This document shows, one piece after another, positions 5,039 to 43,705 of a stretch of DNA of 64,000 nt. The stretch covers positions 11,160,001 through 11,224,000 of the forward strand of contig CM060731.1 in the NCBI GenBank assembly GCA_030704615.1, read 5' to 3'. The notes beneath the pieces are model-generated. The model was not told where the DNA came from. It was given only the letters and a program-made list of their open reading frames with translations, and did not search any database. Positions within the stretch are counted from its first letter, which is position 1. Each line of letters begins with the position of its first letter. This DNA comes from Takakia lepidozioides (taxonomy: Eukaryota > Plantae > Bryophyta). The position numbers and the translations under genes were made by a program.

Positions 5039-5575
5039 TGTCGTGCGCATACATATTGCTACACAACTACATCGTTGTCCAAACCACACCACATATATAT
5101 GCACAATAAAGTAGTCTGCCACAATAGATAAGAAAAACTAAGAACACACTGTTGACACAAAACATGACAACCAAAATCATCACTCTTTCGAATAGAAGTC
5201 GAGCCAGGGGCACCCCAAGCTATGGGGACTCCACCCCACAACAACCTATACTCCCATCATAAGCACACTCAGTCCTAAACGATGCAGGAGCTCGGTCGCG
5301 CAGGCTCAACTCGAGAGAAATGAGCCACGCGACTGCCGCTCTCGTGAAGATAAGGCCATTCAGGTATCAAACTAAACTTAACACCTGATTTAATACTTGA
5401 CCTAAATCCAAGTGTTAAATACAAATAACTAGTTTTATTCTAGTTGTTTTCACACTGTGCTTATTTAACTTGACAGCTGTCGTGCGCATACATATCGCTA
5501 CACAACTACATCGCTGTCCAAACCACACCACATATATATGCACAATAAAGTAGTCTGCCACAATCGCCCCCCTAG
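5039..5575 (-). repeat. Copy A 3' terminus: B2 5039-5123, A2 5127-5475, GC 5476-5477, B1 5478-5562, PPT 5563-5575
   Basis: B1 and B2 are 85-bp direct repeats. A2 matches 16618-16966. Palindrome GACAGCTGTC at 5472-5481. Confidence 0.92.
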
Positions 5576-5822
5576 CTGGTGGGTAGGTCCCTCTACCTCC
5601 AGATAGCTACAAGATGTAATAGCCACAGCCGTACTAAGTCCTCTATCACTGCCCCTATTGCACTCAAACTCTATAGACCAAGAGGCCGGGTACAAGAGTA
5701 GCCCCATCGTTAGTCGCCATCTTGCAATCTGTGAACTTGAGCCAGGACCTCGTGTGTTCAAGGTCTCCTAGTAGCTGGGCCTTGCGTTTCTTGTTAGCCT
5801 TCCATGGTTGTATCCACTCCCA

Positions 5823-7220
5823 CTATCCAATGCAATGTGGACATAACCAATCCCCATCCGAAACCATCTCAAGAGGTGGAGTCAAGCATCTCATATGCCA
5901 ACCTCTAGAGCATCGATCACACACCAGTATGGTGGCTGCCCCTTTAGCAGACCCACACAACATGCACCTCAAACCTGCAGATACCACCGCCAAGTTTGGG
6001 TCAATCCTGCCATCGACATTCGGAAGGTGACATGGCGCACAATTACGCACATGGTCCTTCCAAGTTATGCCATCCCGACCCTCCAAGACCAAGACGCATG
6101 AAGGCAAGACCTCTCGAACCCTCAAAATAACACGTCCTGCAGTCACATCCAGGATCGTATGAGCAGTCTGCTGCAGATAGACATAGTCACCAGGGTTGAA
6201 TCTCCGAACCCCAGGACGATAGCCCCCACCACGTATGGTAGCATACCTCAACGTATCACGGTGTTGTGCAATGGCAAGGTTCTCGAAAGCCATGGGCATG
6301 ACTCTCTTGAACAACTCTGCACGCTGCTCACATGCACGTGCCCACACGTCCGGATCGTCAAGGTTAAGAACTGTAGCAGCTTCTGTGCGAATGGATGTAG
6401 GCAAATCCGGCTCTCGGCCAAAGAGAAGAAAGTATGGTGAGAAGGAGGCAAGTGATGCTTGTTTGCTGAACCTGTAGCCCATGGCTAACCAAGGTAACTG
6501 AAGGTCCCAATCTCCTAGGTGTCCCTTCTGCAAGCCATACTTGCGCAAACCCCTCTTTACTGTCTGAACAACTCTCTCTGCCAAGCCATCGGCCTCAGGA
6601 TGATCCCGAGAAGTGGTGCGGTGGTCTATCAAGGCCTTGTCACACAAAGCCTAAACTCCCCCAAGAACTCTCTCCCTTGGTCCATGAGTACCTCAGCTGG
6701 AGCACCGAATCGGCTAAGCACACAATCCAAGAATGCATACGCAGCTCTCTCACTAGCCTTATCAGGCAATGGAACCAATTCAATCCACTTGGAGAAGTGC
6801 TCCACCATCACCAATACGTACTTGTTGTGGCGCATGGTCAGTGGCAATGGCCCTGCGAAGTCAAGACTCCACCTGTAGCCCAATCCCATGATCGGAAGAG
6901 GGTGCAATTGTGGAGTAGGGGCGTTGAATGAAGCACGCACCCTGTCACACACCATGCACCTAGCCACAAATTGTTGCACCTCTGTGTGCATACCACGCCA
7001 CCAATACTGCCCCTGCAGTAGACTATGAGTGCGTCGCACCCCAAAATGCCCCAACTCCTCATGGGCATGCCGCACTAACCGTGCCCGCTGTGTTGGGTGA
7101 GGCACAATCCTCACTCGACCATCCTCCCACACTCGGAGCGGGTGTGTCCCCTCCCACGTAAACCTCTTGGCTCGTTGTAGGATCCGATCCCTCTCCTTGG
7201 CAGTCACAGTGGCTGCAGTG
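5823..7220 (-). pseudogene. Copy A integrase (HHCC zinc finger, D-D35-E core) plus C-terminal PHD finger; one frameshift near 6650
   Basis: HAHEELGHFG...CMVC; WSLDF...DQGREF...GLAER; CMLC...CDRC...WHMRC...WLCPHC (C4HC3). Confidence 0.9.
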
Positions 7221-7222
7221 TC

Positions 7223-8956
7223 TCAAGTGCGGAGGTAGTCCAACACAACTGAATCCTCATGTATATCTTTGGCGCCACCTTGCTCATTGTTGGCCTCAGG
7301 GTCCTCAGACACTTGATCTACAGTCATCCCTGTTGCAGGTCCAACCTGGCCTTCCGCTGCCAAGATACACAGAAATGCAGATGCATGCCATCCGGGCACC
7401 ATCTCCTCGTCCGTCTCACCATGCCACCGAGCTCCAGTGTCATCCTGCTGGCTCGTGCATGGATTGCGACTCAACCCATCTGCATTGCGATTGACCAAAC
7501 CCGGTCGATGCACCACCTGAAAGTCATACTCTTGAAGGATGAGTGCCCACCGTGCAAGCTTCCCCGTAAGCTTGTCTGACTTCATCAACCACTTGAGTGG
7601 TTGGTGATCCGTGACAAGGGTGAAGAGATTGTCGTATAGATAGCACCTGAAGTGTGCCACGGCCCACACTGCAGCTAAGCATTCTCCCTCATATGAGCTA
7701 TACTTAGACTCTGCAGCATTGTTCGAGCGGCTAGCATAAGCCACTACGAACTCTCTTCCCTCATCATCCACCTGTGTGAGCACCGCTCCAAGCCCCAGCA
7801 TGCTCCAATCTGTATGCAGCTGAAAAGGACGCCCCCTGATAGGTCGTCTCAAGATGGGCGCCGAGGTCAACCTCGCCTTGAGCTCTTGAAAAGCTCGTTC
7901 TTGCTCATCTTCCCACTGCCACTCCTGGTCCACCTTGGTCAGCTTGGTTAGAGCCTTTGCAATGGCACTAAATCCCTTAACAAACCGTCTGTAATAGTTT
8001 GCTAACCCCATGAAAGCTCGAACTCGGCTCACATCCGTGGGGCGTGGAACCTGTGCAATGGACTCTACCTTAGTCTGCTGTACCCCCAATCCTCCAGGAT
8101 ATATCATATGACCCAGATACTCAATCTGGTTGTGGAAGAACTTGCACTTGCCCGGATGTAACTTCAATCCGTGCGTCCTCAAGCGCTCAAATACCCCCTG
8201 AAGGTGTCTCTCATGCTCCTCCACCGTAGCACTAAAGATGATGATGTCATCTATGTAGCACCGAGCAAACTCCACCCCTGCTAGAATCCTGTCCATGACT
8301 CTTTGAAACTCAGCGGGAGCGTTTTTAAGCCCAAATGGTAAGAACCACCACTGGTATAGGCAATCCTTCCCGTGCTCATTGATCCCCCAGAATGCCGTCT
8401 TTTGCTTATCCGCCTCTTTGATCGGCAACTGGTGATATCCGGATCGTAAATCCAACGTGCTAAAGACCTTGGAATGCCCAATGGCATCAAAGATCTCCTC
8501 TGGTGTCGGCATGGCATACCTATTGGACTTGGTCTGACGATTTACAGGCTGGTAATCACCGCACATACGTCTCTCCGTCCAATTGCCATAGACATCCTTC
8601 TTGGCTGGCATCACTGTGGCTGAAGCATACTCTCCACCAGAGAGCTCCACCAAACCTGCCTCCCAGAGATCTTGAGTCCTCATCTGAATCAAAGACCTCT
8701 CCATGTCACTGTATCTATAGGGTCTCCAAAAGATTGGCGTGTCAGTGGCCAACTCAATACGGATCTCTTGACCCTTCAGTGCTCCCAAGTCCTTCAAACT
8801 GAAGGCAAAGCAATTCCTGTAAGCCCTCAGGAACCGCCGTATACGTCGTCTCTCTCCTCCGATGACAATGGGTCCAATGTCAGGCTCCCAATTGTCCTCC
8901 GTAACTGCAACCTTAAGTCCAGTGGGCTTAGAGGTAGAGGACGCGTCCCGTGGTTG
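7223..8956 (-). CDS. Copy A reverse transcriptase and RNase H (Ty3/Gypsy type)
   Basis: [53 protein letters not shown]. Open in frame from the TAG at 8959-8957. Confidence 0.92.
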   Translation of the reverse strand, partial: QPRDASSTSKPTGLKVAVTEDNWEPDIGPIVIGGERRRIRRFLRAYRNCFAFSLKDLGALKGQEIRIELATDTPIFWRPYRYSDMERSLIQMRTQDLWEAGLVELSGGEYASATVMPAKKDVYGNWTERRMCGDYQPVNRQTKSNRYAMPTPEEIFDAIGHSKVFSTLDLRSGYHQLPIKEADKQKTAFWGINEHGKDCLYQWWFLPFGLKNAPAEFQRVMDRILAGVEFARCYIDDIIIFSATVEEHERHLQGVFERLRTHGLKLHPGKCKFFHNQIEYLGHMIYPGGLGVQQTKVESIAQVPRPTDVSRVRAFMGLANYYRRFVKGFSAIAKALTKLTKVDQEWQWEDEQERAFQELKARLTSAPILRRPIRGRPFQLHTDWSMLGLGAVLTQVDDEGREFVVAYASRSNNAAESKYSSYEGECLAAVWAVAHFRCYLYDNLFTLVTDHQPLKWLMKSDKLTGKLARWALILQEYDFQVVHRPGLVNRNADGLSRNPCTSQQDDTGARWHGETDEEMVPGWHASAFLCILAAEGQVGPATGMTVDQVSEDPEANNEQGGAKDIHEDSVVLDYLRT

Positions 8957-9249
8957 CTATGCTGCAACCTCTTGAGCAGTACTCCCTTCTTGCTCAGTCA
9001 ATGACAAGGCCTCATCCTGCCCCATCATCTCATCATTGAGAACCTCCTCATCCCGAGAAGAATCCCCAACCTCATCCATCACAGCTGCCTTGGCTACCAA
9101 CTCCATCTGAACCTCGAGCACCTCCCACGTGTGCCATGGATGTCTACACCCCGTGGTCCTCACCGGCTCGCCCCCACTTGCTGCCTGTACCGTCTCGGTA
9201 GGCAGAGAGACCGTCAAGGGAAGTGCACTCCGCACTCTACGTTGCTCAG

Positions 9250-10125
9250 CCATAGCCAAGCTGATAATCCAGGTCAAGCAATTGAGATCCATTGCTTGCC
9301 CCAACACCTGACGACGTGATGCCTCAGAAAAAGAGGGCACCGCCGTGGTACCAGTGGTGAAACCCATCGCCCGCTCGCGCTCGTCAGCATTGGGCTCTAC
9401 TAATTACTGCAACTGGCTATCCCACAAGAGGCCATGTCCACCATCCTGAAAAGCATGAGATCCTGGAAAGCTAAGCAGTGTAGGCAATGCGGCTTGTGGG
9501 TGACCCACCTTATTGACCACTGCCAAAGGTGATCGGTCATCATGTCTCACACGTTGAGACTGTCTCCCTATGTCCAAAATGCTATCCACCGTCAGGTGTG
9601 GTGGCCGCTGCACCCCATCAAATGCACACTTAAGCAGTGCGGGTGGCATCAAGTTAGTCCACCAAAGTCGTGGACGATGAGCCCGTGATCCCACTGCAGC
9701 TGCATCCAGCAACACTGCTGACCCAAGCCACGACCGGACTTAATGCACACTGGCCATCACCCTGGCCCGAGAATCACCCATCAGTGGCACATTCTCCAAG
9801 ATGTATGCTGGAGATACAGCTTGATGAAGCTGCAAGTGGCGCAAAACCCGCACCATCTCCCAAAACAGACCCGTCCTCGAGTCTCTTGCGCCCCCAATAA
9901 GGAAATGTCTGCTGGCAAGGCTTGTTGGTATCCACGAACTGCAGACACATGCAACAAGTCAGGGTACTGCTGTACCAACTGAGCCACATGGCGCAGTAAG
10001 ACGCGTCGTGCAATCTCATCCCTCTCCACATACATGTAACGCCTTACCCGCACACCTGCCTGTAGCACAGCAGCCAATCCGGTGCTGATCCCGCCAAACA
10101 AGTCCAGAAGGCAAATGCCTTCATC
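9250..10125 (-). pseudogene. Copy A DNMT3-like C5 cytosine methyltransferase, catalytic motif IV deleted
   Basis: Motif I LDLFGGIST, II YVERDE, VI ENV, VIII DAAAVGSRAHRPRLWWTN, IX ERERAMGF, X RQVLGQAM. About 87 bp containing GWPCQG is missing near 9885 relative to copy B. Confidence 0.88.
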
Positions 10126-10479
10126 CGGATACTGCCACACAATAGGTGTGGTATCCAATGGTGACAACTGAGGTGGTCCTGGTGCAATACCCGCACTCTC
10201 CTCCTCTCCTGACGGTACAAAAGCCTCTACCCAGGCTTGTTGCACCCGTCGATCAGCAACCTACTACAAATCCTTGCTCGTACCCCACAATGGAGTGTGA
10301 GCAACCATGGCAGGCAACTCCGCCATACCATGCATGTCATCCTGCTCTGCTGGAGATGGCACATCCTCTGCATGGGCATTGCCTTCCAGCAACTCTCCAG
10401 GCCAACTAACTGCAGCTGTAAAGGCAGCTAGTGTTGGCATCTTGCCCCGTTGGGCAGCCGCAATACCCCCAATGAATGT

Positions 10480-10870
10480 CACAGGGAGCTGTGCACGACG
10501 ACCATCCCCTGACTGCCATCCAGGCCTGTAGAATGCTGACTCCTCCCAAAAGTCCAGGGTGAAGCTCATGGGGTATAACACTGCCCCACCAACAAGGACA
10601 TCGTAAGAGACCGCGTCTGTCACAATGGCCTTGGCTCGCATTACTGAGCCATCGATAAGATGATCCGGCTGTAGTCTAATGGCCAACTGATGTCGTGTCA
10701 TGCCCCGAGCCTGCTCTGATCCTCCCAGAGATGTCTGTATCTGGAAAGGACAAGGCTCCATATCCGCCTCCATGAGGCCCAAACCTGCAATAGCAGCTCT
10801 ACCCAACATCAGTGGCTGAGCTCCCGAGTCCAACAAGACCCGTAGTGGCCGGTACTTCTTGCCTGCCGGT
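10480..10870 (-). CDS. Copy A retroviral-type aspartic protease domain
   Basis: RVLLDSGAQPLMLG ... YDVLVGGAVL within ORF 10264-11178. Confidence 0.85.
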
Positions 10871-11317
10871 CCACTCAAAGTAAAAATGCCTCCCTGGTTG
10901 TCTAACAAGACAACTCCAGGTGTCACCATGGCGCGCTCAAAGGCTGGCCTAGCTGGCAGCTCCGTCAACCTGGCAGCTGCAGCTTGCCATGGCGCAGCCG
11001 TGGCAGTCTTGATCCTCAAATCCGAGGATCCCTCTGCCACTACACCTTCCAGTAACTCCGCAGAAGATGAAGTGACCTCCCCACTCTCAAAGAGTGTTGC
11101 TGCTAGTCTGAACACTGCAGCTGGTCTTACCCCCGGCGTCGCAATCATGGTTGCCGAGAACAGTGGGGCTTGACACACAGAGGTGGCTGCCCCAACAACA
11201 CACCGGCTGCACTAGCCTTGGCAGCAGGTGTCAGTGCTGCACGTGTAGCTCTCCCCAATGGCATAGAAACCTCCGCCTCGGTAACAGTCAGGCGAGAACT
11301 AGGTGCCATGGATGGCG

Positions 11318-13067
11318 TCAACACTGTCTCCGCCAATGTGAATGACTGAGGAGCCTCGCCTGACGGCTTGCCTCCCCATGTTGTGGATCCAACTCCACCT
11401 CTACACCTCGTGGCTCAGGAACTCGTGCTGCTCCTCGAGTCACGGCTGCAGCAGACTCCACCTGCTTTAGTGGTAGTGCTGCTCCGCACATGAATCCCAT
11501 GCCTCCCATATCTCCTCCCTCAGGCGCAGGAGGTGGACCATCCCGCCTGGGAGCCGGTACCGCCTGAGCTGTAGCCATGGCAGCGAGCCTCTGCTCTAGC
11601 TGCTGAAGCCGGTTGGCCATGCCTTGGTCAACACCCTGACCTCCGCGTCCGTGGCCATGTTGAGCTTGCCCTTGGCCTGCACCTCGTGCCCGACCACCTC
11701 GTCCTCTCTGGGCTGGTCCACCTCGCCCCCGGCCACCATTGTTCCCTTGGAACTGGCCTGGGCGCAACTCAGGATGCAAGTCATAACACTGGGCATCTCC
11801 ATGCCCATACTTGCCACAATGCCCACACTGCAACTGTGCAGGCTGTGTTTGTGCCGGCCTTTTGCCACTCTCTGAGCAATCTCTCTTGACATGGGGTCCT
11901 CCACATGTCCAACATATCACCCCTGGTTGCTGTTGGCCTGCAAAAGATGCCACGGGCCTCTGCACCTGAGGTCCCCTGTAAGCTCCATGGAACTTGGGTT
12001 GGGAAACCTTGCCCCCCTGACCACGCTGTTGGGCAGTCCCTTGTGCCTGTGGGCTGGCAATTGCGCCTCGTGCAGGCATGTCCTTGCCAAACCAATGGTA
12101 ACAACTCGCTCCTCCACCATGTTGAGCTCAATCCGCTCAGCCAGCAGAAACACATCTGCTAATGTGGGTTGGGCTGCTTGTAACAGGGTTGCATCCCGCA
12201 CCCTTCTCCTGAGCTCCTTGTCCAAAATTCCATACCAAAACTGGATTGCCTGAGCTTCAGTAACCCCTTGGGTCACACTTATCAAGCGCCTCATACGAGT
12301 GTAGGCCTCTCGCAAGCTCTCATTGGGTTTGCGCTGGAAGTCTTGCAAACTTTGCAGCTTCTCTGTCCGTACACCTTGGTAGTTCCTCCGCAACTCCTGG
12401 AAGAACTCCACCACCGGGTGAATCTAGGCACATGTGTTGTAGTCGTGGCAGGAGGAGTAGTAGCACCTTTTGAACTGGTACCACCTGCAGAAGTATCGGC
12501 ACTACTTGTTCCACTACTAGTGCTGGTAGTGGGAGATATCGGTACTGATGCAGCTACTGGTCGCATCGTGCCTCGAGTAATGGAGACGTAGTCAGATGAC
12601 CAATACATCCTCCACTCCTCAATCTCTGCTTCATGTCCTCGCCTGAACTCGTGGTAATCGTCCATAGGCGGGCCTTCCAAATGCTGGAACAGCCCTTTCC
12701 ACGCCATGAATGGGGTGAATAGCTGTGGATTGCGCATTTGCTGCAAATCACACCAGCTGTCGAACTCCTGGATAAAGTCATCCAACTCGATTGTGCCCAC
12801 AGCTCCAGAGTACCTACGAGGCCCCTTGGTAGCTCCATACATCTCCTCCATGTCGTCCCACAACAATGGCAAATGAAACTGCACACCTGTTGATGAAGCT
12901 TCCGAGTCTGTGTCTGACTCTGCACTAGTTGAGGGTGGCGGTGAAGGTGGTCTGAACCAAATACCTCGTCTTGTGAACCCACTCTCACTATTACTGCCTG
13001 TAGCCGTACTCCCCTCAAAACCCTTGGGTAACTCCGTGATGACACTCACAATGTGCACCTCCCCCAC
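11318..13067 (-). pseudogene. Copy A gag (capsid-like region, two CCHC zinc knuckles, RGG-rich tract), frameshifted
   Basis: FQRKPNESLREAYTRM; CWTCGGPHVKRDC; CGHCGKYGHGDAQC; GGRGRGG repeats. Confidence 0.85.
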
Positions 13068-14759
13068 GTGACACTATAGGGCTCTAGTACTAATTCTAAT
13101 AGTGACACGGGTGGGCACCTGTTGCAGTTTAAGGGTCATATCCCAATGGCTCAGGGCACCTGCACCTGCATCCACCGCAAGAACTCCTATGGTTGGCTGG
13201 TCATCAACCCAGCCTCACCATAGAAGAAACACTGGTGGTCTTGCTGGTCATCACTCCAGCCTCACCACCGACAGCATACTCTAGGATTGACCGGTGATCA
13301 AATCCGGCCTAATCCCTATGAAAGCAAGCGCCCACACAAAACCAACATGGCGCACAGTCAAGCATGCAGGTGTTGGGGGGGATCCAAACACAAGAAATCA
13401 AAACATCAACACCCCCACACCAAAATCCAGCTGCAATGCTGATCCTGCAGAATATCCCAGCCCAAAACCCCGGACTGACTGGCCTCCACCAAGAGAGGCT
13501 TTGGCAACTACGAGTACAAGGTAATGAAAATAGTACAGAGATGGAGGGGAAGAATAGAAGCCCGCCAAGCAAGATCTAATCCTGATCTATGCTATCAACT
13601 TCCAGACTTCTCTCAAAGTGCCTCGCTCTGCATGATGGTAAGGTGTAGGAGGTATATCTATGTCCAGAAACCTGCCACTAACCTTGTCCCAAGCTACAGT
13701 AGCTCGCTCTAACCAACCCTCCTCCTCTTTCTGCCAGGTAGAGACAAAGCAACACACTGCTATCTCCCGCTCACTGAACACTAAAGAAAACAAAGGTAGG
13801 GTCTGATAGTCTCTCAACTCGAAAGCTTTGAGACGGTTGCGGGTGTCCTCATTGCGAATGACTGCATCTCCTTCAAACAGAACAAACTTGTCCTCGCTAA
13901 TGAACCCCCGCTCGTGGTTGCCTTGTGCAGAGCGTGTCCGGCTGCAACGCTGTCTGATTGCACAAACTTGTGTAGCTCCTGCTCCTCTGCTCTAGTACAC
14001 CACAGCCTTGTGGCTGAACACCTTGGTCCCCGGGGCTGTCTTTGGCTGTGTTCCAAGCCTAGCTTTCACCCACTTTGGTATTTCACTTACAGCTGCAGAA
14101 CTGCTGGCTCCAACAGAGTTCTGACTGTCCAAAGCGATATTGAGGCCCTCAACGCCAACTACAGCAGTCTGTTGTCTACTGCTAATGCCTGACTCCCAGT
14201 ATGCAATCAACTCGTCCAACTGTTCTCCACTCAAATCAGTCTGAGTTCCTTGGGAAACATAAATCTTGTCCCCTTGTGTGCACAGGCTAAGAGAAGAGAC
14301 CTGCCCTTCAATTACGTCCTCATTTCCCCCAGCCATACAAGGAGGACATCCACAGATTTGTCTCTCAAATAGACCAGAATTGGTTCTAGAAACAGAATTG
14401 TGGATCTTTCACGACACACTCACACTCTAAAAATTCCATAGATTTTTAGCAGAGTCCCAAAAACAGAAACCAGGTCTAGATAGGTAGATTTCCCCTTTCT
14501 GCAGCTATTCCCTCAAAAACTGAGTCAAACGGAGCTCATTTGACAGAGATATGGCCAAAGCGGCTCTGTAACTATAATAAATGACCTTAAATAGAAACAA
14601 ATACAACGAAAAATTATTTTAAATTGGTTCCCTTTGGTTCCCTGTTCCCACCTTTTTTTTTTTTTTTTTTTCACTACAGTATAGTCACCGTTCCCAGGTG
14701 CCCATCGATTAATGCACCAACCAAATTGGATTCACCAACGCAATGGTGTATGCTGATGC

Positions 14760-16270
14760 GATACATCTGATGTCAGCCGTCTGTCCAGTACCACAGATTG
14801 GAGGAGAGTAGCAAATCACACGCCCATCTTCCCCAAGCATAGTACAATCCAGGGCTGAAGGATGCAATTGCGACACTGCGCAGATCACATCATCTCCAAA
14901 GGGGCAACTAGCTTGTGAAAGAGATGCCTGCAAACAGGAGTTCCTGGTGGCAGCCATAACAGAAGGCCCGCTCCCTTCTTCCCATTTGCCTCGGCTAAAT
15001 CACCAATCTCTTCAAACAGGGGCACCTATTATCCTCTCCCGTGTATCTACACATTCCGGAGAAGCGGGATCAGTGTTGCCACATCCCTCGACAATATACT
15101 CGATAGATTTGGTGAACCCGATGACCACCTTTGACAGGGCTCAACGCACTCATCCCAGGTATATATTCCCATGTGTACTGTAGGTAGATGGTCATCTCAA
15201 GCTCATCGCCTTCAAAACCCTCCTTCACAACACAGCGCTTCCATCTGTGCAGCACTAAAGGCCTCCCAGGTAACTTTCTACTAAAGGATCTCCTTTGCGG
15301 TCCACAGTCACATTGTGAAGATCACACGCCAAATCCAGTAGCTGACTGCAAATTGTTGTAGCCTCTAATTCGGGTAAAATAATAAACACAACTGGATCGC
15401 TCAGGCACTGTCGACCTTATGGCAGTACACCGGCCCCTAGCTTCTTCTCTATTTTCTACCCTCCTTTGTAAGGGTTAACACGGCACATGATAAGCTAGGG
15501 GCTGGAGAAGCAGTACTGGAATCCATCTCATGCTTTTAAAATGACGCCAACGTCAGCCCATAATTTATCACTCAGCTCCCTGCAACGGATTGTTGTCCGC
15601 TATAGCTCTGTGCCAGGTCAATAGGGATTATGGGCTAAGGTAAACCTTGTGGGCTGCAGCCATTTGTGAGGCATTTAGTGACTGGTGGGGACGAGGCCCT
15701 TACACATTGTCTTCCTGTAGAGAACTTCCTCAAAACAGGTGTAAAAGATTTCAGAGAAGAGTAGAAAAGAAGCAACCGGCACTCACTGCACCCTAGTTTG
15801 TTGACGGCCCCCCGTGTGTCACGGCCGTGGACATTAAGAATCCATATCGGCTCGTAGCCCTCAGCAAGCAGGGAAGGAGCTGCAGTCTCTTCAGCAAAGG
15901 GCGCGGGGATAGTTGACTTGGTGCGCCTGGTCTCCGCACCAACACCAAAGTACTGCATCAACGTCTGTCCAGCTGAGAGCTTCACGCCAGAGCCAGCAGC
16001 CTTCAAATGAGGCAGCGTGTAAGGTAGATTGAGACGAAGAGTGATTCTTCTCCACAGATTTCAGTAGCATCTCCTTATGGGTGTCTACATCATTGCTCGG
16101 TACAGAGAACTCGTACGTGATCCAGTGGTGCAGGTACACGTTGTTCAGAGGCACAGACATACCCTTCTCGTCCACAAACTCCGCATAGCAGTCCCTAATT
16201 CCCAGATGGCCCTTCGGAGCATCCACCACGAAGTGTTTGTTCTTTACGTCTCCAAGACTAGAACAATGCG
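14760..16270 (-). pseudogene. Captured SURNod19 (stress up-regulated Nod 19)-like gene fragment inside copy A leader
   Basis: VDAPKGHLGIRDCYAEFVDEKGMSVPLNNVYLHHW; QYFGVGAETRRT; EGYEPIWILNVH..DTRG..KLGCSECR; CDLHNVT; GEDGRVICYSPPICGTG. Contains stops and a probable intron ~15330-15777. Confidence 0.8.
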
Positions 16271-16600: not shown

Positions 16601-16617
16601 GCTCATCTCTCTCGAGT
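16601..16617 (-). promoter_or_regulatory. Putative self-priming primer-binding site of copy A
   Basis: Directly abuts A1 and is the exact 17-nt reverse complement of 16800-16816 inside A1. No tRNA-type TGG start. Confidence 0.6.
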
Positions 16618-16966: not shown

Positions 16967-16970
16967 TTGT

Positions 16971-28140: not shown

Positions 28141-28144
28141 CATA

Positions 28145-29700: not shown

Positions 29701-29702
29701 AA

Positions 29703-32610: not shown

Positions 32611-32777
32611 ACAGAGACAGCCTCATTATGCAATGCAACTATTGTCTCCCAGCTTTTCTACCACATCACGAAGACCCCCTAAAAGAGTATGCGGCACCGC
32701 ACACTGCAACCACCACACACAAAATAGCCTGAAGGGCCCAGGGTATGCACGTTGGTGTTACTACACACGGATAGAGC

Positions 32778-33133
32778 TGTCAAGTTAAATAAACACAGTG
32801 TGAAACTAACTAGAATAAATCTAGTTTTTTGTATTTAACACTTGGATTTAGTTCAAGTGTTAAGTCAGGTGTCAAGTTTAGTTTGACACCTGAACCGTCT
32901 TATCTTCACGAGAGCGTCAGTCGTGCGGCTCATCTCTCTCGAGTTGAGCCTGCACGACCGAGCTCCTTCACTGCTTAGAATCGGAGTGTGCTTATGAAGG
33001 GAGAATAGGATGTTGTGGGGTGGAGTCCCCATAGCTTGGGGTGCCCCTGGCTCGACTCTTAGTTTTAATGAGTGATTGTGTTGTGTTGAGTGTTTCTTTG
33101 TTATCAGACATGTGAGTTTAGTTATTTCAATCA
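32778..33133 (+). repeat. Copy B 5' terminal repeat A1 (356 bp)
   Basis: Matches 43264-43619. Confidence 0.92.
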
Positions 33134-33149
33134 CTTGAGAGAGATGATC
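33133..33149 (+). promoter_or_regulatory. Putative self-priming primer-binding site of copy B
   Basis: ACTTGAGAGAGATGATC is 15/17 complementary to GCTCATCTCTCTCGAGT at 32928-32944. Confidence 0.55.
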
Positions 33150-33507
33150 TTGCATCTGTGAGTGCCAGAGGTGAGTTTAGTTGTAGCACTTGTGGTTTTT
33201 GTTTTGAAAGTGAGAAAAGAAAATTATGGTGGTTTGTAGATTATGTTTGTGACAAGCTGGTTGAGACAGAGAAGCGATTATCTGTGTTCAGGTAATCTTT
33301 AGTTAGAAAGATGTCAAGTTTGGCCACTGGAGCGATGGTTAGAAAGCACGGTGAAGCCTTCTACTGTCTATCAGCTTTGTCATCGTTGTTGCCATCAAAA
33401 GGCTGACGGTGTGACAATGGCGGTGCCTTCCAGTGCCTAGGTTGAACGTACATGCCAGCACCTGGCATCGTCGGAGCATACTGGTCACCACCAACCTGTG
33501 CATTATG

Positions 33508-33769
33508 CGCCACCGTCGGTGCGGAAGCCGATGACGAAAGAATATCCTTCTTGCTAAAGGAGTTGGATGGTAAAGATATTACGGAGGTGATTGCTTCCGG
33601 TAGGGAGAAGTTTGCATCTATGCCATCAGGCGTAGGCGGCGGCGGCGGTGTTGTGGTGGCTTCCTCTGGTGGAGGTGGAGATGGAGGTGCTGCTGCTGCA
33701 CCTGTTGGAGAAAAGGAGGAAAAGAAGGAGGAGTCTAATGATGACATGGGTTTCAGCCTTTTCGACTAA
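33508..33769 (+). pseudogene. RPP2: Captured 60S acidic ribosomal protein P2 fragment (N-terminus missing)
   Basis: [39 protein letters not shown]...[13 protein letters not shown]. Confidence 0.88.
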
Positions 33770-33944
33770 GCTTGGGATGCAGTTTTGCAGCGCATCCGAT
33801 GGTTACTTTGATGCTATCTCAACTGCATGTGGCTGTTGAGCATTACTTAACAGTCGTTTTATACCTGCGCTGGTGCTGGTGGAGGTGACGCCATCGCCAC
33901 AGGAGCACCTTGCTTTATCCTCGGGGCGGCTGCTTGTTCTTCAG

Positions 33945-34065
33945 CTTATGTCTTCAACCTCCTCCAGATAGTCATTGAAGTCTCGAAGTGATGAAAACCC
34001 GTCCTCTCGTTTATTGAACAAGTTCTGAATTTTCCGACGCACAACAATCTCCTTGTTCATTTCGC
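33945..34065 (-). pseudogene. Captured MAT1 (CAK assembly factor) fragment
   Basis: KEIVVRRKIQNLFNKREDGFSSLRDFNDYLEEVEDI. Confidence 0.75.
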
Positions 34066-34229
34066 AGTGTTCGGCTTGTCCTTCTTGATCAACGCACTCT
34101 CTCAGACATTTCTGTGCTCTCAACTCCAAGCTAGGAAGAAAGAGGAGCAAAAGCTGGGGGCTGGATTCCGGAACTTGGTCGCAGACGGGCATTTGAAGAG
34201 GCCTTCATGAGTATGTGGATGAAGATAGC

Positions 34230-34830
34230 TGATATTGGAGAAGGTCATAAGTTGCATGAACCACAACCAAAGTTCCCTGCTTTGTGGTGGCACTCATGCA
34301 GAATGATTCTACCCCTTGTGATCTCAATGTCTTTTGAAACATGGGCCAGCAATCTGCTGCCTCTGGGATATCCATCTTGTTGTAAGCCACTACGTGTGGT
34401 TTAAGTGCCAAGTTGGCGTTGAAGAGCTGCAGCTCCAAGCGCACTGCTTCATACTCCTGAACAGCTTGCACACTTGTACCGTCCACCACCTGCACTAGGA
34501 CACGGCAATGCTCTGTGTGACGGAGGGACTCATGGCCCAAGCCCCCATGTGCTCTTCCAGCAGGCCGGGTAGATCAGCCACCACCATTGATGTGTCAAAA
34601 TCCAATGCCACTACCCCTAAGTTGGGCAGCAGTGTAGTGAAGGGATAGCTGGCAATTTCAGGGCGCACAGCACTGATGGCACTCAAAAGTGTGCTCTTGC
34701 CAGCATTTGGAACGGCCACTATGCCCACATCTGCAACCAGCTTCAGCTCCAATTCCACCCACATTTCTGCACCCTCTTCGCCATTTTCGGCCATCTGAGG
34801 AGTCTTGTTGCGACCAGTTTTGAGGCAGTG
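34230..34830 (-). pseudogene. Captured Obg-family GTPase fragment
   Basis: [23 protein letters not shown]; [11 protein letters not shown]; DLPGLLE; [15 protein letters not shown]; NKMD. Confidence 0.88.
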
Positions 34831-35599
34831 TTGCCTCACCCACCCCGACCTCCCGGCAGCAGCAGCTCCTGCTTCCCTGGAGTGGTCAATTCCAGCAGAA
34901 CATCTCCATTCCTTTAGTCTTCCCAACGCCGTGGCAACTCTGTGTTGACATTGGCTTCACCTGCTTTAGCCTTGGAAAGCTATTATGAAGGTTTGAAGAA
35001 GGCGTCCAAGGAATTCTTAGGGAACCTGCAGTGAATCGCAAAAAACGTGGGAACAAGGAACCAAAGGAAACCAATTGAAAATAGTTTTTCCTTGTATTTG
35101 TGTCTATTTAAGGTCATATATTATATTTACAGAGCCTCTTTGGCCATATCTTTGTCATATGAGCTCCGTTTGACACAGTTTTTGAAGGGATAGCTGTAGA
35201 AAGGGGAAATCTACCTACCTATTTAGTTTTTTGGACTCTGCTAAAAATCTATGGAATTTTTTGAGTGTGAGTGTGCTATGAAAGATCCACAATTCTGTTT
35301 CTAGAACCTGTTGTGGTTTACATGAGAGACAAATATGTGGATGTCCTCCTTATATGGCTGGGGGAAATGATGACGTAATTGAAGGGTCGGTGGTGAGGCT
35401 GGAGTGATGACCAGCAAGACCACCAGTGTTTCTTCTATGGTGAGGCTAGGTTGATGACCAGCCAACCATAGGAGTTCTTGTGGTGGATGCACGTGCACAT
35501 GCCCTGAGCCACTAGGATATGACCCTTAAACTGCAACAGGTGCCCACCCGTGTCACTATTAGAATTAGTACTAGAGCCTTATAGTGTCACGTAGGGGAG

Positions 35600-37300
35600 G
35601 TGCACGTTATGAGTGTCATCACGGAGTTACCCAAGGGTTTTGAGGGGAGTACGGCTACAGGCAGTCGCAGTGAGAGTGGGTTCACAAGACGAGGTATTCG
35701 GTTCAGACCACCTTCACCTCCACCATCAACTACTGTAGAGTCTGACACAGACCTGGAGGCTTCATCAACAGGTGTGCAGTTTTCTTCGCCATTATTGTGG
35801 GACGACATGGAGGAGATGTATGGAGCTACTAAGGGGCCTCGTAGGTACTCTGGAGCTGTGGGCACAATCGAGCTGGATGACTTTATCCAGGAGTTCGACA
35901 GCTGGTGTGATTTGCAGCAGATGCGCAATCCACAGCTGTTCACTCCATTCATGGCGTGGAAGGGATTGTTCCAGCATTTTGAAGGCCCGCCTATGGATGA
36001 TTACCACGAGTTCAGGCGAGGATATGAAGCAGAGATTGAGGAGTGGCGGATGTATTGGTCACCTGACTACGTCTCCATTACTCGAGGAACAACGCGACCA
36101 GTAGCGACATCAGCACCAATACCTCCCACGGCCAGCACTAGTAGTGGAACAAGTAGTGCTGGTACTTCTGTAGAAGGTGCTACTACTCCTTCTGCCACGA
36201 CTACAACACATGTGCCTAGATTCAGCCCGGTGGTGGAGTTCTTCCAGGAGTTGCGGAGAAACTACCAAGGTGTACGGACAGAGAAGCTGCGAAGTTTGTA
36301 AGACTTCCAGCGCAAATCCAGTGAGAGCCTGCGAGAGGCCTACACTTGTATGAGGCGCTTGATAAGTGTGACCCAAGGGGTTACTGAAGCTCAGGCAATC
36401 CAGTTCTGGTATGGAATTTTGGACAAGGCGCTCAGGAGAAGGGTGCGGGATACAACCCTGTTACAAGCAACCCAACCCACATTAGCAGATGTGTTTCTAC
36501 TGGCTGAGCGGATTGAGCTCAACATGCTGGAGGAGCGTGTTGTTACCATTGGATTTGGCAAGGACATGCCTGCACGAGGCGCAGCTGCCAGCCCATAGGC
36601 ACAGGGGACTGCCCAACAGCGTGGGCAGGGGGGCAAGGTTTCCCAACCCAAATTCCATGGAGCTTACAGGGGACCTCAGGTGCAGAGGCCAGTAGCATCT
36701 TTTGCAAGCCAACAGCAACCAGGGGTGATATGTTGGACATGTGGAGGACCCCATGTCAAGAAAGATTGCCCAGAGAGTGGCAAAAGGTCGGCACAAGCAC
36801 AGCCTACATAGTTGCAGTGTGGGCATTGTGGCAAGTATGGGCATGGAGATGCCCGGTGTTATGACTTGCACCCTGAGTTGCAGCAAGGCCAGTTCCAAGG
36901 GAACAATGGTGGCCGAGGGCGAGCTGGAGCACCTCAGAGAGGACGAGGTGGTCAGGCACGAGGTGTAGGACGAGGGCAAGCACAGTATGGCCAAGGACGT
37001 GGAGACCAGGGCGTTGACCAAGGCATGGCCAACCGGCTTCAGCAACTAGAGCCAAGGCTTGCTGCCATGGCCACAACTCAGGTGGTACCAGCTCCAAGAC
37101 CTGAGGGTCCACCTCATGTTCCTCCTTAGCAGCGTCATCCTGACGGAGGAGACATGGGAGGCATAGGATTTATGTGTGGGGCAACACTACCATTAGTGCA
37201 GGTGGAGTCTGCTGCAGCCGTCACTCGAGGAGCAGCACGAGTTCCTGAGCCACGAGGTGCAGAGGTGGAGTTAGATCCACATCGTGGGGAGGCAAGCCAT
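35600..37300 (+). pseudogene. Copy B gag with two CCHC knuckles; premature stops
   Basis: Homologous to A 11318-13067. Confidence 0.87.
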
Positions 37301-37799
37301 TAGGCTAGGTTGCCTCAATCATTCACCTTGGGGGAGATAGTGTCGACGACATCCATGGCACCTAATTCCCGCCCGACAGATACAGCGGCCGTTATTGTGC
37401 CATTGGGGAGAGCTACACGTGTAGCACTGACACCTGTTGCCAAGGCTAGTGTAGCCAGTGCGTTGTTGGGGGCAGCCACCTCTGTGTGTCAAGCCCCACT
37501 GTTCTCGGCGACCATGATCGCGACGCCAGGGGTAAGACCAGCTGCAGTGTTCAGACTAGCAGCAACACTCTGCGAGAGTGGGGAGGTCACTTCATCTTCT
37601 GCGGAGTTGGTGGAAGGTGTAGTGGCAGAGGAATCCTCGGATTTGAGGGTCAAGACTGCCACAGCTGCGCCATGGCAAGCTGTAGCTACCAGGTTGACGG
37701 AGCTGTCAGCTAGGCCAGCCTTTGAGCGCGCCATGGTAACACCTGGAGTTGTCTTGTTAGACAACCAGGATGTCATTTTCTCTTTGAGTGGACCGGCAG

Positions 37800-38190
37800 G
37801 CAAGAGGTACCGGCCACTGCGGGTCTTGTTGGACTCGGGAGCTCAGCCACTGATGTTGGGCAGAGCTGCTATTGCATGTTTGGGCCTCATGGAGGCGGAT
37901 ATAGAGCCTTTTCTTTTTTAGATACAGACATCTCTGGGAGGATCAGAGCAGGCTCGGGGCATGACACGGCGTGAGTTGGCCATTAGACTACAGCCGGATC
38001 ATCCTATAGATGGCTCAATGATGCGAGCCAAGATGTGACAGATGCGGTCTCTTACGATGTCCTTGTTGGTGGGGCGGTGTTATATCCTATGGGCTTCACC
38101 CTGGATTTTTGGGAGGAGTCAGCATCCTACAGGCCTGGATGGCAGTCAGGGGATGAAGTACAACTCCCTGTGACATTCATTGGGGGTGTT
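37800..38190 (+). pseudogene. Copy B aspartic protease
   Basis: RVLLDSGAQPLMLG; YDVLVGG. Confidence 0.85.
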
Positions 38191-38529
38191 GCTGCTGCCC
38201 AGCGGGGCAAGATGCCAACACTAACAGCCTTCACAGCTGCAGTTAGTTGGCATGGAGAGTTGCTGGAGGGCAATGCCCATGCAGAGGATGTGCCACCTCC
38301 AGCAGAGCAGGATGACATGCATGGTACGGCGGAGTTGTCTGCTATGATTGCTCACACTCCATTGTGGGATACGAGCAAGGATTTGCAGCAGGCTGCTGAT
38401 AGACGGGTGCAACAAGCCTGGGTAGAGGCCTTTGTACCGTCAGGAGAGGAGGAGAATGCGGTGATTGCACCAAGACCACCTGAGTTGTCGCCATTGGACA
38501 CCACACCTCTTGTGTGGCAGTGCCCGGAT

Positions 38530-39490
38530 GAAGGCACATGCCTTCTGGACTTGTTTGGCGGGATGAACACTGGATTGGCTGCATTGCTGCAGGCAGGTGT
38601 ACGAGTTTGACGTTACCTGGAGAGGGATGAGACTGCACGACGCATCTCACTGCGCCATGTTGCTCAGTTGGTGCAGCAGTATCCTGATTTGTTGCCAGTG
38701 TCTGCAGTTCGTGGATACCAACAGGCATTGCCAGCCGACATCTCTTTGCTGGGGGCGCATGATTTGGAGCGGGTTGACCCTATTCACTTGGTAGTGGCAG
38801 GTTGGCCTTGCCAAGGGCATTCATCAGCCGGGCATGACAATGGGTTACAAGACTCAAGGTCACGCCTGTTTTGGGAGATATTGAGGGTCCTACGCTATTT
38901 ACAACTTCAGCAGACAGACTCTCCGGCATATATCTTGGAGAATGTGCCATTGATGGGTGATTCTCGGGCCAAGGTGATGGCCAGTGTGCATCAAGTGCGG
39001 TCTTGGCTTGGGTTAGCAGTGTTGCTGAACGCAGCTGTAGTGGGGTCACGGGCTCATCGCCCACGACTATGGTGGACCAACTTGATGCCACCTGCACTGC
39101 TCAAGCGTGCATTTGATGGGGTGCAGCGGCCACCACACCTGACGGTGGATAGCATTTTGGACATAGGGAGACAGTCTCAACGTGTGAGACATGATGACCG
39201 ATCACCTTTGGCAGTGGTCAATAAGGTGGGTCACCCACAAGCCGCATTGCCTACACTGCTTAGCTTTCCAGGATCTCATGCTTTTCGGGATGGTGGACAT
39301 GGCCTCTTGTGGGATAGCCAGTTGCAGTAATTAGTAGAGCCCAATGCTGACGAGCGCAAGCGGGCGATGGGTTTCACCACTGGTACCACGGCGGTGCCCT
39401 CTTTTTCTGAGGCATCACGTCGTCAGGTGTTGGGGCAAGCAATGGATCTCAATTGCTTGACCTGGATTATCAGCTTGGCTATGGCTGAGC
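38530..39490 (+). pseudogene. Copy B DNMT3-like C5 cytosine methyltransferase with all major motifs; frameshift ~38610, TAA at 39328
   Basis: I LDLFGGMNTG; IV LVVAGWPCQG; VI YILENV; VIII GSRAHRPRLWWTN; IX ERKRAMGF; X RRQVLGQAM. Confidence 0.92.
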
Positions 39491-39780
39491 AGCGCAGAGT
39501 ACGGAGTACACTTCCCTTGATGGTCTCCCTGCCTACCGAGATGGTACAGGCAGCCAGTGGGGGCGAACAGGTGAGGACCACGAGGTGCATGCCGCATCCA
39601 TGGCACACGTGGGAGGTGCTCGAGGTTCAAAAGGAGTTGGCAGCCAAGGTGGCGGTAATGGATGAGGTTGGGGATTTTTCTTGGGTTGAGGAGGTCCTCA
39701 AGGATGGGATGATGGGGCAGGATGAGACATTGTCACTGACAGAGGAGGCAGTGATCACTGCTCAAGAGGTTGCAGCATAG

Positions 39781-42700
39781 CAACCACGGGACGCGTCTTC
39801 TACCTCTAAGCCTGCTGGACTCAAGGTTGCAGTCACGAAGGACAACTGGGAGCCTGATGTTGGACCTATAGTCACCGGAGGAGAGAAACGACGTATACGG
39901 CGGTTCTTGAGGGCTTACAGGAACTGCTTTGCCTTCAGTTTGAAGGACTTAGGAGCACTGAAGGGTCAAGAGATTCGCATTGAATTGGCTACTGACACGC
40001 CAATCTTTCGGAGACCCTATAGATACAGTGACATGGAGAGGTCTTTGATTCAGATGAGAACTCAGGACCTTTGGGGGCTGGTTTGGTGGAGCTATCTGGG
40101 GGAGAGTATGCTTCAGCCACAGTGATGCCAACCAAGAAGGATGTCTATGGCAATTGGACGGAGAGACGTATGTGCGGTGATTACCGGCCTGTAAATCGTC
40201 AGACCAAGTTCGATAGGTATGCCATGCCGACACCAGATGAGATCTTTGATGCCATTGGGCATGCCAAGGTCTTTAGCACTTTGGATTTACGATCCGGATA
40301 TCACCAATTGCCGATCAAGGAGGCGGATAAGCAGAAGACGACATTCTGGGGGATCAATGAGCACGGGAAAGATTGCCTATACCAGTGGCGGTTCTTACCA
40401 TTTGGGCTTAAGAATGCTCCGGCAGAGTTTTCAGAGAGTCATGGACAAGATTCTAGCAGGGGTGGAGTTTGCTCGGTGCTACATAGATGACATCATCATC
40501 TTTAGTGCTACGGTGGAGGAGCATGAGAGACACCTTCAAGTGGTATTTGAGCACTTGAGGGCGCACGGATTGAAGTTACATCCGGGGAAGTGCAAGTTTT
40601 TCCACAACCAAATTGAGTATCTGGGTCACATGATATATCTTGGAGGATTGGGGGTACAGCAGACTAAGGTAGAGGCCATTGCACGGATTCCACGCCCCAC
40701 GGATGTGAGCCGAGTTCGAGCTTTCATGGGGTTAGCAAACTATTATAGACGGTTTGTTAAGGGATTTAGTGCCATTGCAAAGGCTCTAACCAAACTGACC
40801 AAGATGGACCAGGAGTGGCAGTGGGAAGATGAGCAAGAACAAGCTTTTCAAGAGCTCAAGGCGAGGTTGACCTCGGCGCCCATCTTGAGACGACTTATCA
40901 GGGGGCGTCCTTTTCAGCTGCATACAGATTGGAGCATGCTGGGGCTTGGAGCGGTGCTCACATAGGTGGATGATGAGGGAAGAGAGTTCGTAGTGGCTTA
41001 TGCTAGCCGCTCGAACAACACTGCAGAGTCTAAGTATAGCTCATATGAGGGAGATTGCTTAGCTGCAGTGTGGGCCGTGGCACACTTCAGGTGCTATCTA
41101 TACGGCAATCTCTTCACCCTTGTCACGGATCACCAACCACTCAAGTGGTTGATGGAGTCAGACAAGCTTACGGGGAAGCTTGCACGGTGGGCACTCATCC
41201 TTCAAGAGTATGACTTTCAAGTTGTGCATCGACCGGGTTTGGTCAATCGGGATGCAGATGGGTTGAGTCGCAATCCATGCACGAGCCAGCAGGATGACAC
41301 TAGAGCTCGGTGGCATGGTGAGACGGACGAGGAGATGGTGCCTGGATGGCATGCATCTGCATTTCTGTGTATCTTGGCAGCGGAAGGCCAGGTTGGACCT
41401 GCAACAGGGATGACTGTAGATCAAGTGTCTGAGGACCCTGAGGCCAGCAATGAGCAAGGTGGCGCCAAAGATATACATGAGGATTCAGCTGTGTTGGACT
41501 ACCTCCGCACTGGAGACACGACAGCCACTGTGACTGCCAAGGAGAGGGATCGGATCCTACAACGAGCCAAGAGGTTCAAGTGGGAGGGGAGACACCTGCT
41601 CCGAGTGTGGGAGGATGGTCAAGTGAGGATTGTGCCTCACCCAACACAGCGGGCACGGTTAGTGCGGCATGCCCATGAGGAGTTGGGGCATTTTGGGGTG
41701 CGACGCACTCATAGTCTACTGCAGGGGCAGTATTGGTGGCGTGGTATGCACACAGAGGTGCAATAATTTGTGGCTAGGTGCATGGTGTGTGACAGGGTGC
41801 GTGTTTCATTCAATGCCCCTACTCCACAATTGCACCCTCTTCCGATCATAGGATTGGGCTACAGGTGGAGTCTTGATTTCGCAGGGCCGTTGTCACTAAC
41901 CATGCGCCACAACAAGTACGTGTTGGTGATGGTGGAGCACTTCTCCAAGTGGATCGAGTTGGTTCCATTGCATGATAAGGCTAGTGAGGGAGCTGCGTAT
42001 GCATTCTTGGATTGTGTACTTAGCCGATTTGGTACTCCAGCTGAGGTACTCACGGACCAAGGGAGAGAGTTCTTGGGGGAGTTTTCAGGCTTTGTGTGAC
42101 AAGGCCTTGGTAGACCACCGCACCACTTCTCGGGATCATCCTGAGGCCAATGGCTTGGCAGAGAGGGTTGTTCAGACAGTAAAGAGGGGTTTGCGCAAGT
42201 ATGGCTTGCAGAAGGGACACCTAGGAGATTGGGACCTTCAGTTACCCTGGTTAGCCATGGGCTATAGGTTCAGCAAGCAAACATCACTTGCCTCATTCTC
42301 ACCATACTTTCTTCTCTTTGGCCGAGAGCCGGATTTGCCTACATCCATTCGCAGAGAAGCTGCTATAGTTCTTAACCTTGACGATCCGGACGTCTGGGCA
42401 CGTGCATGTGATCAACGTGCAGAGTTGTTCAAGAAAGTCGTGCCCATGGCTTTCGAGAACCTTGCCATTGCACAACATCGTGATACGTTGAGGTATGCTA
42501 CCATACGTGGTGGGGGCTATCGTCATGGGGTTCGAAGATTCAACCCTGGTGACTATGTCTATCTGCAGCAGACTGCTCCTACGACCTTGGATGTGACTGC
42601 AGGACGTATTATTTTGAGGGTTCGAGAGGTCTTGCCCTCAGGCGTCTTGATCTTGGAGGGTCGGGATGGCATAACTTGGAAGGACCATGTGCGTAATTGT

Positions 42701-42916
42701 ACGTCATGTCACCTTCCGAATGTCGATGGCAGGATTGACCCAAACCTGGCAGTGGTACCTGCAAGTTTGAGGTGCATGTTGTGTGGGTCTGCTAGAGGGG
42801 CAGCTACCATGCTGGTGTGTGATCGATGCTCTAGAGGTTGGCATATGGGATGCTTGACTCCACCTCTTGAGATGGTTCCTGATGGGGATTGGTTATGTCC
42901 GCATTGCATTGGATAG
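39781..42916 (+). pseudogene. Copy B RT-RNase H-integrase-PHD
   Basis: YIDDI, TDWS, DDE residues, C4HC3 PHD at ~42773-42910; several frameshifts and stops. Confidence 0.92.
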
Positions 42917-43162
42917 TGGGAGTGGATACAACCATGGAAGGCTAACAAGAAATGCAGGGCCAAGCTACTAGGAGACCTTGAACACACGAGATCCTGGCTC
43001 AAGTTCACAGATTGCAAGACGGCGACTAACGATGGGGCTACTCTTGTACCCGGCCTCTTGGTCTATAGAGTTTGAGTACAATAGGGACAGTGATAGAGGA
43101 CTTAATACAGCTGTGGCTATTACATCTTGTAGCTATCTAAAATTAAAGGGACCTATCCACCA

Positions 43163-43705
43163 GCTAGGGGGGCGATTGTGGCAGACTACTTTATTGTGCA
43201 TATATGTGTGGTGTAGTTTGGACAACGATGTAGTTGTGTAGCGATACGTATGCGCACGACAACTGTCAAGTTAAATAAACACAGTGTGAAACTAACTAGA
43301 ATAAATCTAGTTATTTGTATTTAACACTTGGATTTAGTTCAAGTGTTAAGTCAGGTGTCAAGTTTAGTTTGACACCTAAACCGTCTTATTTTCACGAGAG
43401 CGTCAGTCGTGCGGCTCATCTCTCTTGAGTTGAGCCTGCACGACCGAGCTCTTTCACTGCTTAGAATCAGAGTGTGCTTATGAAGGGAGAATATGATGTT
43501 GTGGGGTGGAGTCCCCATAGCTTGGGGCGCCCCTGGCTCGACTCTTAGTTTTAATGAGTGATTGTGTTGTGTTGAGTGTTTCTTTGTTATCAGACATGTG
43601 AGTTTAGTTCTTTCAATCATTGTGGCAGACTACTTTATTGTGCATATATGTGTGGTGTAGTTTGGACAGCGATGTAGTTGTGTAGCGATACGTATGCGCA
43701 CGACA
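43163..43705 (+). repeat. Copy B 3' terminus: PPT ~43164-43176, B1 43177-43261, 2-nt spacer, A2 43264-43619, B2 43621-43705
   Basis: 85-bp B repeats; junction GACA-AC-TGTC. Confidence 0.93.

Follow-up and report, generated by a model that had tools for sequence, protein, structure and literature searches.

The window analysed here is a stretch of 64,000 nucleotides (nt) of Takakia lepidozioides (contig CM060731.1), which has a GC content of 49% and forms a nest of retrotransposons. Using self-BLAST and direct reading we identified copy A (minus strand, 16966..5039) and copy B (plus strand, 32778..43705) as one and the same element, with bodies being 90–94% identical, and copy C as a third, older relative that hosts the insertion of copy A and had been missed in an earlier sequence-only reading of the window. 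Copies A and B both show the order target-site duplication (TSD), repeat A1, body, polypurine tract (PPT), repeat B1, two spacer nucleotides, repeat A2, repeat B2 and TSD, confirming the split layout with duplications outside A1 and B2 that this reading had described. Split direct repeats of this kind (A1-B1-A2-B2) characterize PAT, Ngaro and VIPER (DIRS order) and the KnitGypsy-Dnmt3 lineage. Here they belong to a Ty3/Gypsy element with a DDE integrase, and its integrated ends appear to lie inside the long terminal repeat (LTR) that is predicted from its priming sites.

In copy A the left terminus is formed by A1 (16618..16966, minus strand), which starts with TGTC, and the right terminus by B2 (5039..5123, minus strand), and both are bordered by TTGT in the plus-strand reading (16967..16970 on the left and 5035..5038 on the right). 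Between them B1 (5478..5562, minus strand) ends with GACA and is followed by A2 (5127..5475, minus strand). The corresponding plus-strand features of copy B are A1 (32778..33132), B1 (43177..43261), A2 (43264..43618) and the right terminus B2 (43621..43705), enclosed by GAGC at 32774..32777 and 43706..43709. For both duplications a length of 4 base pairs (bp) fits and 3, 5 or 6 bp does not. A1 and A2 differ at 11 of 349 positions in copy A and at 9 of 355 in copy B, B1 and B2 at two and one of 85, respectively. The motif GACAnnTGTC occurs exactly twice in the window, namely at the two junctions of B1 and A2, which read GACAGCTGTC with spacer GC in copy A (5472..5481) and GACA-AC-TGTC in copy B (43258..43267), where most family contigs have G at 43262 instead of the A of copy B. 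The copy A junction GACA-GC-TGTC is a perfect palindrome, as had been stated. Furthermore, 33 contigs of the older host family C from run X1, which represents the organism with the window's sequence, cross the insertion point of copy A with a single TTGT, and thus the TSD of copy A is a true duplication.

According to Pfam and tblastn the element encodes Gag, a protease (PR), a C5 cytosine methyltransferase, reverse transcriptase (RT), RNase H (RH), an H2C2/rve integrase (IN) and a C-terminal PHD finger, showing the Ty3/Gypsy pol order PR-RT-RH-IN with a DDE integrase. On the minus strand of copy A we located a broken gag region (11318..13073, weak PF03732 match), the protease region with an LLDSGA motif (10264..11211, aligning to residues 644–791 of protein P0033, which span its protease domain), the broken methyltransferase (9266..10260, tblastn), RT and RH (7223..8956; PF00078, PF17917 and PF17919) and the integrase with H2C2 and rve followed by the PHD finger (5823..7222). 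The same series of gag, PR, methyltransferase, RT, RH, integrase and PHD occupies 35585..42916 of copy B (plus strand). Both copies have a frameshift between the D and the E of the integrase, and their coding regions are broken by stops and frameshifts, several of each in copy B. A pattern scan revealed the spacing of 35 positions from the second D to the E in frame in copy C and 9 of 11 relatives, and no family match to a tyrosine recombinase was obtained with Pfam among the 82 proteins scanned, in line with the D-D35-E integrase without recombinase proposed before. The methyltransferase between PR and RT had not been noticed in the sequence-only reading (PF00145 in copy B, E 2e-12). A chromodomain at the integrase C-terminus, which is typical for the chromoviruses Tcn1 and Tf1, was not found by Pfam and the PHD finger stands in its place.

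Relatives with RT-RH-IN-PHD, often together with the methyltransferase, are present in Marchantia, Calypogeia, Sphagnum, Closterium and Klebsormidium. Proteins from Haematococcus and Tetraselmis group with this clade, and neither PHD nor methyltransferase is among the domains listed for them. An RT-RH tree built with FastTree from 132 sequences and rooted at the midpoint separates the clade from the chromodomain-bearing and animal Gypsy proteins, with a support of 0.90 for this group and 1.00 for the other. The window copy adjoins Marchantia P0005, and P0090 from Klebsormidium nitens (RT-RH-IN-PHD) falls within the same clade, the support of 0.90 referring to the whole group.

The ends made by reverse transcription can be predicted from the priming sites. 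Directly after A1 we found a primer-binding site (PBS; 16601..16617, minus strand, in copy A), overlooked before, that is the reverse complement of a site inside repeat A; a TATA-like box precedes the latter site by about 30 nt. In copy A this site (16801..16816, minus strand), the predicted 5' end of the RNA and self-primer, forms a Watson-Crick run of 16 nt that none of 500 shuffles matched. The pairing exists in 11 of the 12 A1/PBS pairs compared, which represent four unrelated LTR sequence types. The perfect runs in these 11 are 10–17 nt long and were matched by 0–3 of 500 shuffles; the exception is the decayed site of copy B (33133..33147, plus strand), having a perfect run of only 5 nt. 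At the other side a PPT lies directly before B1 (5566..5577, minus strand, in copy A; 43162..43173, plus strand, in copy B). A PBS after the 5' repeat and a PPT before the 3' repeat are what is expected for Ty3/Gypsy, and both positions together predict an LTR of the order B-nn-A for the reverse transcript. This agrees with the B+A repeat assumed from the first reading of the sequence, with the small correction that the final A of the element end given as ATCA is already the first base of the PBS pairing. We also considered an LTR of the order A+B with a merely truncated 5' LTR, which was rejected because no PPT precedes A2 and the PBS directly follows A1.

The ends made by integration are different. 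From a scan of metagenome contigs we kept 80 of 362 related stretches, and a scan of genome contigs added three loci, two of them from one assembly; among viral contigs 19 pattern matches included no relative. After removal of duplicates and inclusion of the window copies, all 14 distinct left ends change from flank to A with a TGTCA-like start, and all 30 tallied distinct right ends change from B to flank after GACA, 17 of them as B-A-B and 13 as B only. Conventional ends with flank before B or after A were found at none of the 14 left and none of the 30 right ends, nor did we see the two complete LTRs with PPT- and PBS-defined outer ends of an ordinary Ty3/Gypsy element; the sole exception to the absence of flank after A is one locus (L006) with unrelated sequence following A1. 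Integration ends at the internal palindrome, as first suggested from copies A and B, are thus the pattern of all tallied ends. Ten elements with both ends can be examined for a 4-bp TSD, which is exact in seven, has one mismatch in two and is without match in one (L068); the termini TG...CA and a TSD of 4–6 bp are those of Ty3/Gypsy. At least 27 contigs of run X1, whose flanks are unlike one another (agreement 0.38), depart from the element at the B end, and rare conventional ends may occur among 618 and 121 further loose-end rows for this organism. Two contigs of another run, X7, were left out of the analysis.

The left-end tally omits L041 (same as L040) and L024/L025, in which the start of A lies off the contig. 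Not included in the right-end tally are L001, L011, L013 and L042, reading B-A followed by the PBS or the contig end, the fold-back copy L031 described below, L036 with an interrupted B, the contig ends L037, L044 and L047, L080 with B-A-B and an irregular end, and the duplicates L050, L052/L062 (of L051) and L076; for L015 the count at the terminus deviates by one base. Three of these contigs, L001 (9285 nt, ends overlapping by 127 nt), L011 and probably L042, read PPT-B-GC-A-PBS-body. L001 and L002 come from an assembly labelled as cyanobacterium and are probably plant contamination.

With four chance rows set aside, 20 rows of the junction between B1 and A2 (plus strand of the loci) show the spacers GC (14, three of which represent one insertion), AC (three), GT (two) and AT (one), and one further locus shows AA (L071). 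AC, GT and AT are the products expected from CHG deamination of GC (CAG/CTG sites). The joint between A2 and B2 consists of the A end and variable 2–4 nt from the PPT side of B (5124..5126, minus strand, in copy A) and appears to join the two RT-defined ends. Among 18 such joints, 13 deviate from a flush join by no more than about 2 nt, four carry larger lesions and one is unclear. The lesions are an A2 cut to about 75 nt (L065), a B2 cut to 29 nt with intact TSD (L082), an 18-nt insert (L072) and a trimmed joint (L080), and four additional unitig joints with deletions were found in run X1. Exact termini together with a sloppy joint would be expected if the integrase makes the termini and end joining makes the joint. 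Private indels or substitutions of B2 match its own B1 in both window copies and in six loci of the F2 family (L052, L060, L065, L068, L071 and L072), and A2 is nearest to its own A1 in all five cases, from which it follows that both repeats are re-copied in every cycle. As B2 shares the markers of its own B1 and has no TSD of its own, it is not an independent solo insertion, a possibility raised before.

Attachment (att) sites moved inside the LTR, combined with joining of the RT-made ends, are the core of both models that we consider in detail, and we are highly confident of this core. Regarding the substrate we lean towards a polar, probably linear, copy in which the palindrome nearest to each end would be cut by the DDE integrase, with the leftover ends being joined. 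In a first step, self-priming of the type known from Tf1 and priming at the PPT would give complementary DNA (cDNA) with the LTR B-GC-A, i.e. B-A-body-B-A. All termini are TGT(C)-(A/G)-TG-like and have a 4-bp TSD next to them, suggesting att sites relocated to the B/A junction. Cleavage following each CA of this junction would generate a pair of ends with 5' overhangs of 2 nt, as they are known for 3'-processed ends in retroviral integration chemistry. The A2/B2 joint would then be an end-to-end joining of the two RT-made ends, for which an RT jump to the other end, cDNA end joining or host repair after strand transfer are possible routes that are not distinguished here. The left end used would always be A1. 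With a join the product would be the replication-competent A-body-B-A-B, without a join the dead-end A-body-B, and fold-back of the plus strand would give a copy ending in an inverted A.

All three product classes can be found in the collection. Besides the B-A-B right ends there are the 13 (out of 30) without A2-B2, three of which belong to whole A-body-B elements bordered by TSDs (L008, L009 and L041). The right end of L031 (3361-3878) shows A2, the PBS and then the inverted first 180 nt of its own A (168 of 180 identical), cut at GACA before AT-rich flank, which is the product expected from plus-strand DNA folding back on the copy of its primer. One rule, cutting at the palindrome nearest to each end of a linear or polar duplex, covers A-body-B-A-B, A-body-B and the fold-back. 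The mirror form A-B-A-body-B occurs at none of the 14 left ends, a result with a probability of 0.5^14 = 6e-5 if mirror and normal forms were equally frequent, or 4e-4 at an expectation of 43%.

The second model, which we regard as possible but clearly the weaker one, places a 2-LTR circle first: the cDNA would be closed by end joining and the integrase would cut one B/A palindrome, as at IS3/IS30 junctions. In IS3/IS911, IS30 and IS21 junction intermediates are cut by a DDE enzyme at a palindrome of head-to-head att sites, leaving CA-3' ends. Such a circle would yield A-body-B-A-B from a single cut, the A2/B2 joint resembles a non-homologous end-joining junction, and the proportion of B-only right ends (13 of 30) comes close to the one half that a collapse of mirror forms would produce. 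A precedent for internal palindrome cleavage by DDE integrases also exists, as the HIV-1 and foamy-virus enzymes have been described to cut 2-LTR palindromes, and such circles can feed integration (PMC4372172, PMC1905944). However, over 85 nt to one side and about 300 nt to the other nothing distinguishes the two palindromes of the circle, and being locally identical they should give normal and mirror forms about equally often, but the mirror form is absent from all 14 left ends, including three of three B-only elements with both ends and TSD (L008, L009 and L041). Moreover, L031 pairs an inverted site. The circle would stay viable if the integrase were pre-bound at the 5' LTR or if mirror products were to collapse immediately. 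A free 2-LTR circle as originally postulated is not supported, given the missing mirror product.

We consider it unlikely that the repeats are copied in the manner of PAT and Ngaro, with the RNA running through B2, template switches regenerating the repeats and the integrase acting on true A...B ends of the cDNA. The layout A1-B1-A2-B2 is indeed the one of PAT, Ngaro and TOC1 (as far as described in PMC4157794), and B2 is longer than B1 in L064 and L068. Against it, the conserved PPT before B1 and the covarying self-PBS after A1 fix priming at other ends, B2 bears the private markers of its own B1, the A2/B2 joint differs between sister copies, and no tyrosine recombinase was matched (82 proteins). 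Post-insertion rearrangement of ordinary B-A...B-A elements, nesting of copies or an assembly artefact, for which the deep repeat nest in the window might speak, are highly improbable, since the same order with 4-bp TSDs occurs in four unrelated LTR sequence types and independent assemblies, no conventional end was found among 14 left and 30 right ends, and empty-site contigs exist for copy A.

Several points weigh against cutting of a linear or polar copy as we propose it. In the F1 family B1 and B2 resemble each other no more than they resemble other copies, being saturated and uninformative, and in L064 (13106-13268) and L068 (13686-13846) B1 lacks the last 13–15-nt repeat unit that B2 has kept; this shortened B1 concerns two of seven members of that family and still ends junction-like. 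Relic TG and CA persist near the RT-defined ends in several families. The fold-back L031 is a single contig that lacks a left end, and it may be a chimera from library preparation or assembly. The mirror form could have been made and then lost by recombination between the A repeats, also giving A-body-B, and A-body-B may likewise originate from 1-LTR circles or later recombination between the B repeats. The PPT-B-GC-A-PBS-body contigs L001, L011 and probably L042 are either repeat collapses or 1-LTR circles. The related contigs probably derive mostly from few host genomes, and the mechanism is deduced from genomic copies, which do not show the order of cutting and joining. We think it probable that in an old clade of green-plant Gypsy elements the att sites have left the cDNA ends and now lie in an RNA-inherited palindrome within the LTR. 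Its integrase would normally operate as a site-specific endonuclease, and a copy would be replication-competent only if the RT ends are joined.

The remaining features of the window concern the leader of the element and the surroundings of both copies. Inside the 5' leader copy A carries Nod19 gene fragments with a poly(A) run at their end (14653..16319, minus strand; PF07712 matches), and copy B carries fragments of a 60S acidic ribosomal protein gene (plus strand), a MAT1-like match and an Obg GTPase (both minus strand) at 33446..34956. These different host gene fragments occupy the same leader position, just upstream of a shared segment of 355 nt, which looks like mRNA capture into a cargo slot. 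The methyltransferase of copy B (38329-39468, plus strand) keeps motifs resembling I, IV (PCQ), VI (ENV) and VIII in what we take to be the common motif numbering. As the CAG/CTG sites of the junction palindrome decay as if methylated, one might speculate that methylation shields the live att junction carried by each full chromosomal copy.

Copy C has the same right end (4060..4344, minus strand), consisting of PPT, B1 (4330-4246), GC, a short A2 of 95 nt (4243-4149) and B2 (4144-4060). Its body with integrase, RT, methyltransferase and PR (16971..20667, minus strand) continues at 4584-5034 and 60491-62524, and its left end was not found within the window; TGTCATGG at 26967 was rejected as a candidate because the gag of copy C sits at 60491-62524. 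Copy C is interrupted by a chromovirus-type nest (20677-60490; chromodomain, Tf2-like SH3), which contains copy B, is bordered by a 5-bp duplication (TTGTG/CTGTG) and has LTR ends TGTCG...CGACA resembling the att motif of the split element. Long imperfect tandem arrays and a palindromic repeat resembling miniature inverted-repeat transposable elements are located at 28142-29211, 44804-47331 and 52462-54113, the palindromic repeat occurring also near 48047-48380.

A layout of this kind has been published once, in 2018 and for an alga, as KnitGypsy-Dnmt3 from K. nitens combines Gypsy domains with DIRS-type repeats (A-coding-B-A-B; Fig. 4c legend in de Mendoza et al. 2018, PMC5890265). The similarity to the window copies includes the Gypsy pol with cytosine methyltransferase, whereas TSD, priming site, junction palindrome, product classes or mechanism are not given in the parts of that paper considered here. 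P0090 from the same alga has no methyltransferase domain as annotated and is therefore no more than a candidate for KnitGypsy-Dnmt3 itself. In contrast to this algal element the present clade reaches liverworts and mosses. The idea that nothing comparable had been described therefore fails for the layout and stands for the mechanism, which is unpublished as far as searched: no paper on the integration mechanism of split-repeat Gypsy elements was found in the literature covered, with most subscription journals and Repbase Reports lying outside it. New are the evidence for self-priming, by which the RT ends are fixed, the census of termini, the recognition of A-body-B and fold-back copies as classes and the absence of the mirror form, which speaks against a simple route through free circles.

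PAT, TOC1, Kangaroo, Ngaro and VIPER share the split direct repeats A1-body-B1-A2-B2 and in part a methyltransferase domain, but have a tyrosine recombinase without integrase (PMC4157794), whereas the present element combines a Gypsy-type RT and a DDE integrase with a PPT and a 4-bp TSD. Tf1/Sushi and Tcn1 elements also use a PBS complementary to their own 5' end instead of a tRNA (PMC6317226, in part); they differ in having complete LTRs and a chromodomain instead of the PHD finger, and the present clade is separated from the chromodomain-bearing proteins included in the RT-RH tree. With HIV-1 and foamy virus the element would share cleavage of a head-to-head att palindrome in duplex DNA by a DDE enzyme leaving CA-3' ends, but in these retroviruses this is a side route, the palindrome results from end joining and the provirus is conventional (PMC1905944, PMC4372172), whereas here the palindrome is RNA-inherited inside the LTR and gives the only end type seen. 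Troyka (PMC12440569), considered as a possible relative, is unrelated judging from the 3-bp TSD and CG termini mentioned there. Transposons with methyltransferases are said to be absent from land plants such as tracheophytes (a passage of PMC6338049), and the liverwort and moss matches extend them to bryophytes. REXdb was built from LTR-FINDER calls, which need two LTRs, and so the split layout would be missed there.

In summary, the element breaks the rule by which an LTR element is integrated at the ends set by its PPT and primer site, and it offers a natural system in which cleavage of an internal palindrome, a debated side activity of the HIV-1 and foamy-virus integrases, would be the main route. 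If true, this is a third way of integration for an LTR retroelement, in which the DIRS/PAT layout has been reached with a DDE enzyme; it points to a path leading from an ordinary LTR to split direct repeats and bears on the origin of PAT and Ngaro. It also points to a bryophyte and algal repeat family that is missed or given wrong boundaries by tools needing two LTRs, and whose insertions can instead be dated by comparing A1 with A2 and B1 with B2. The clade would then span the named relatives in chlorophytes, charophytes, liverworts and mosses, with the layout itself being read in the window and the contig copies.

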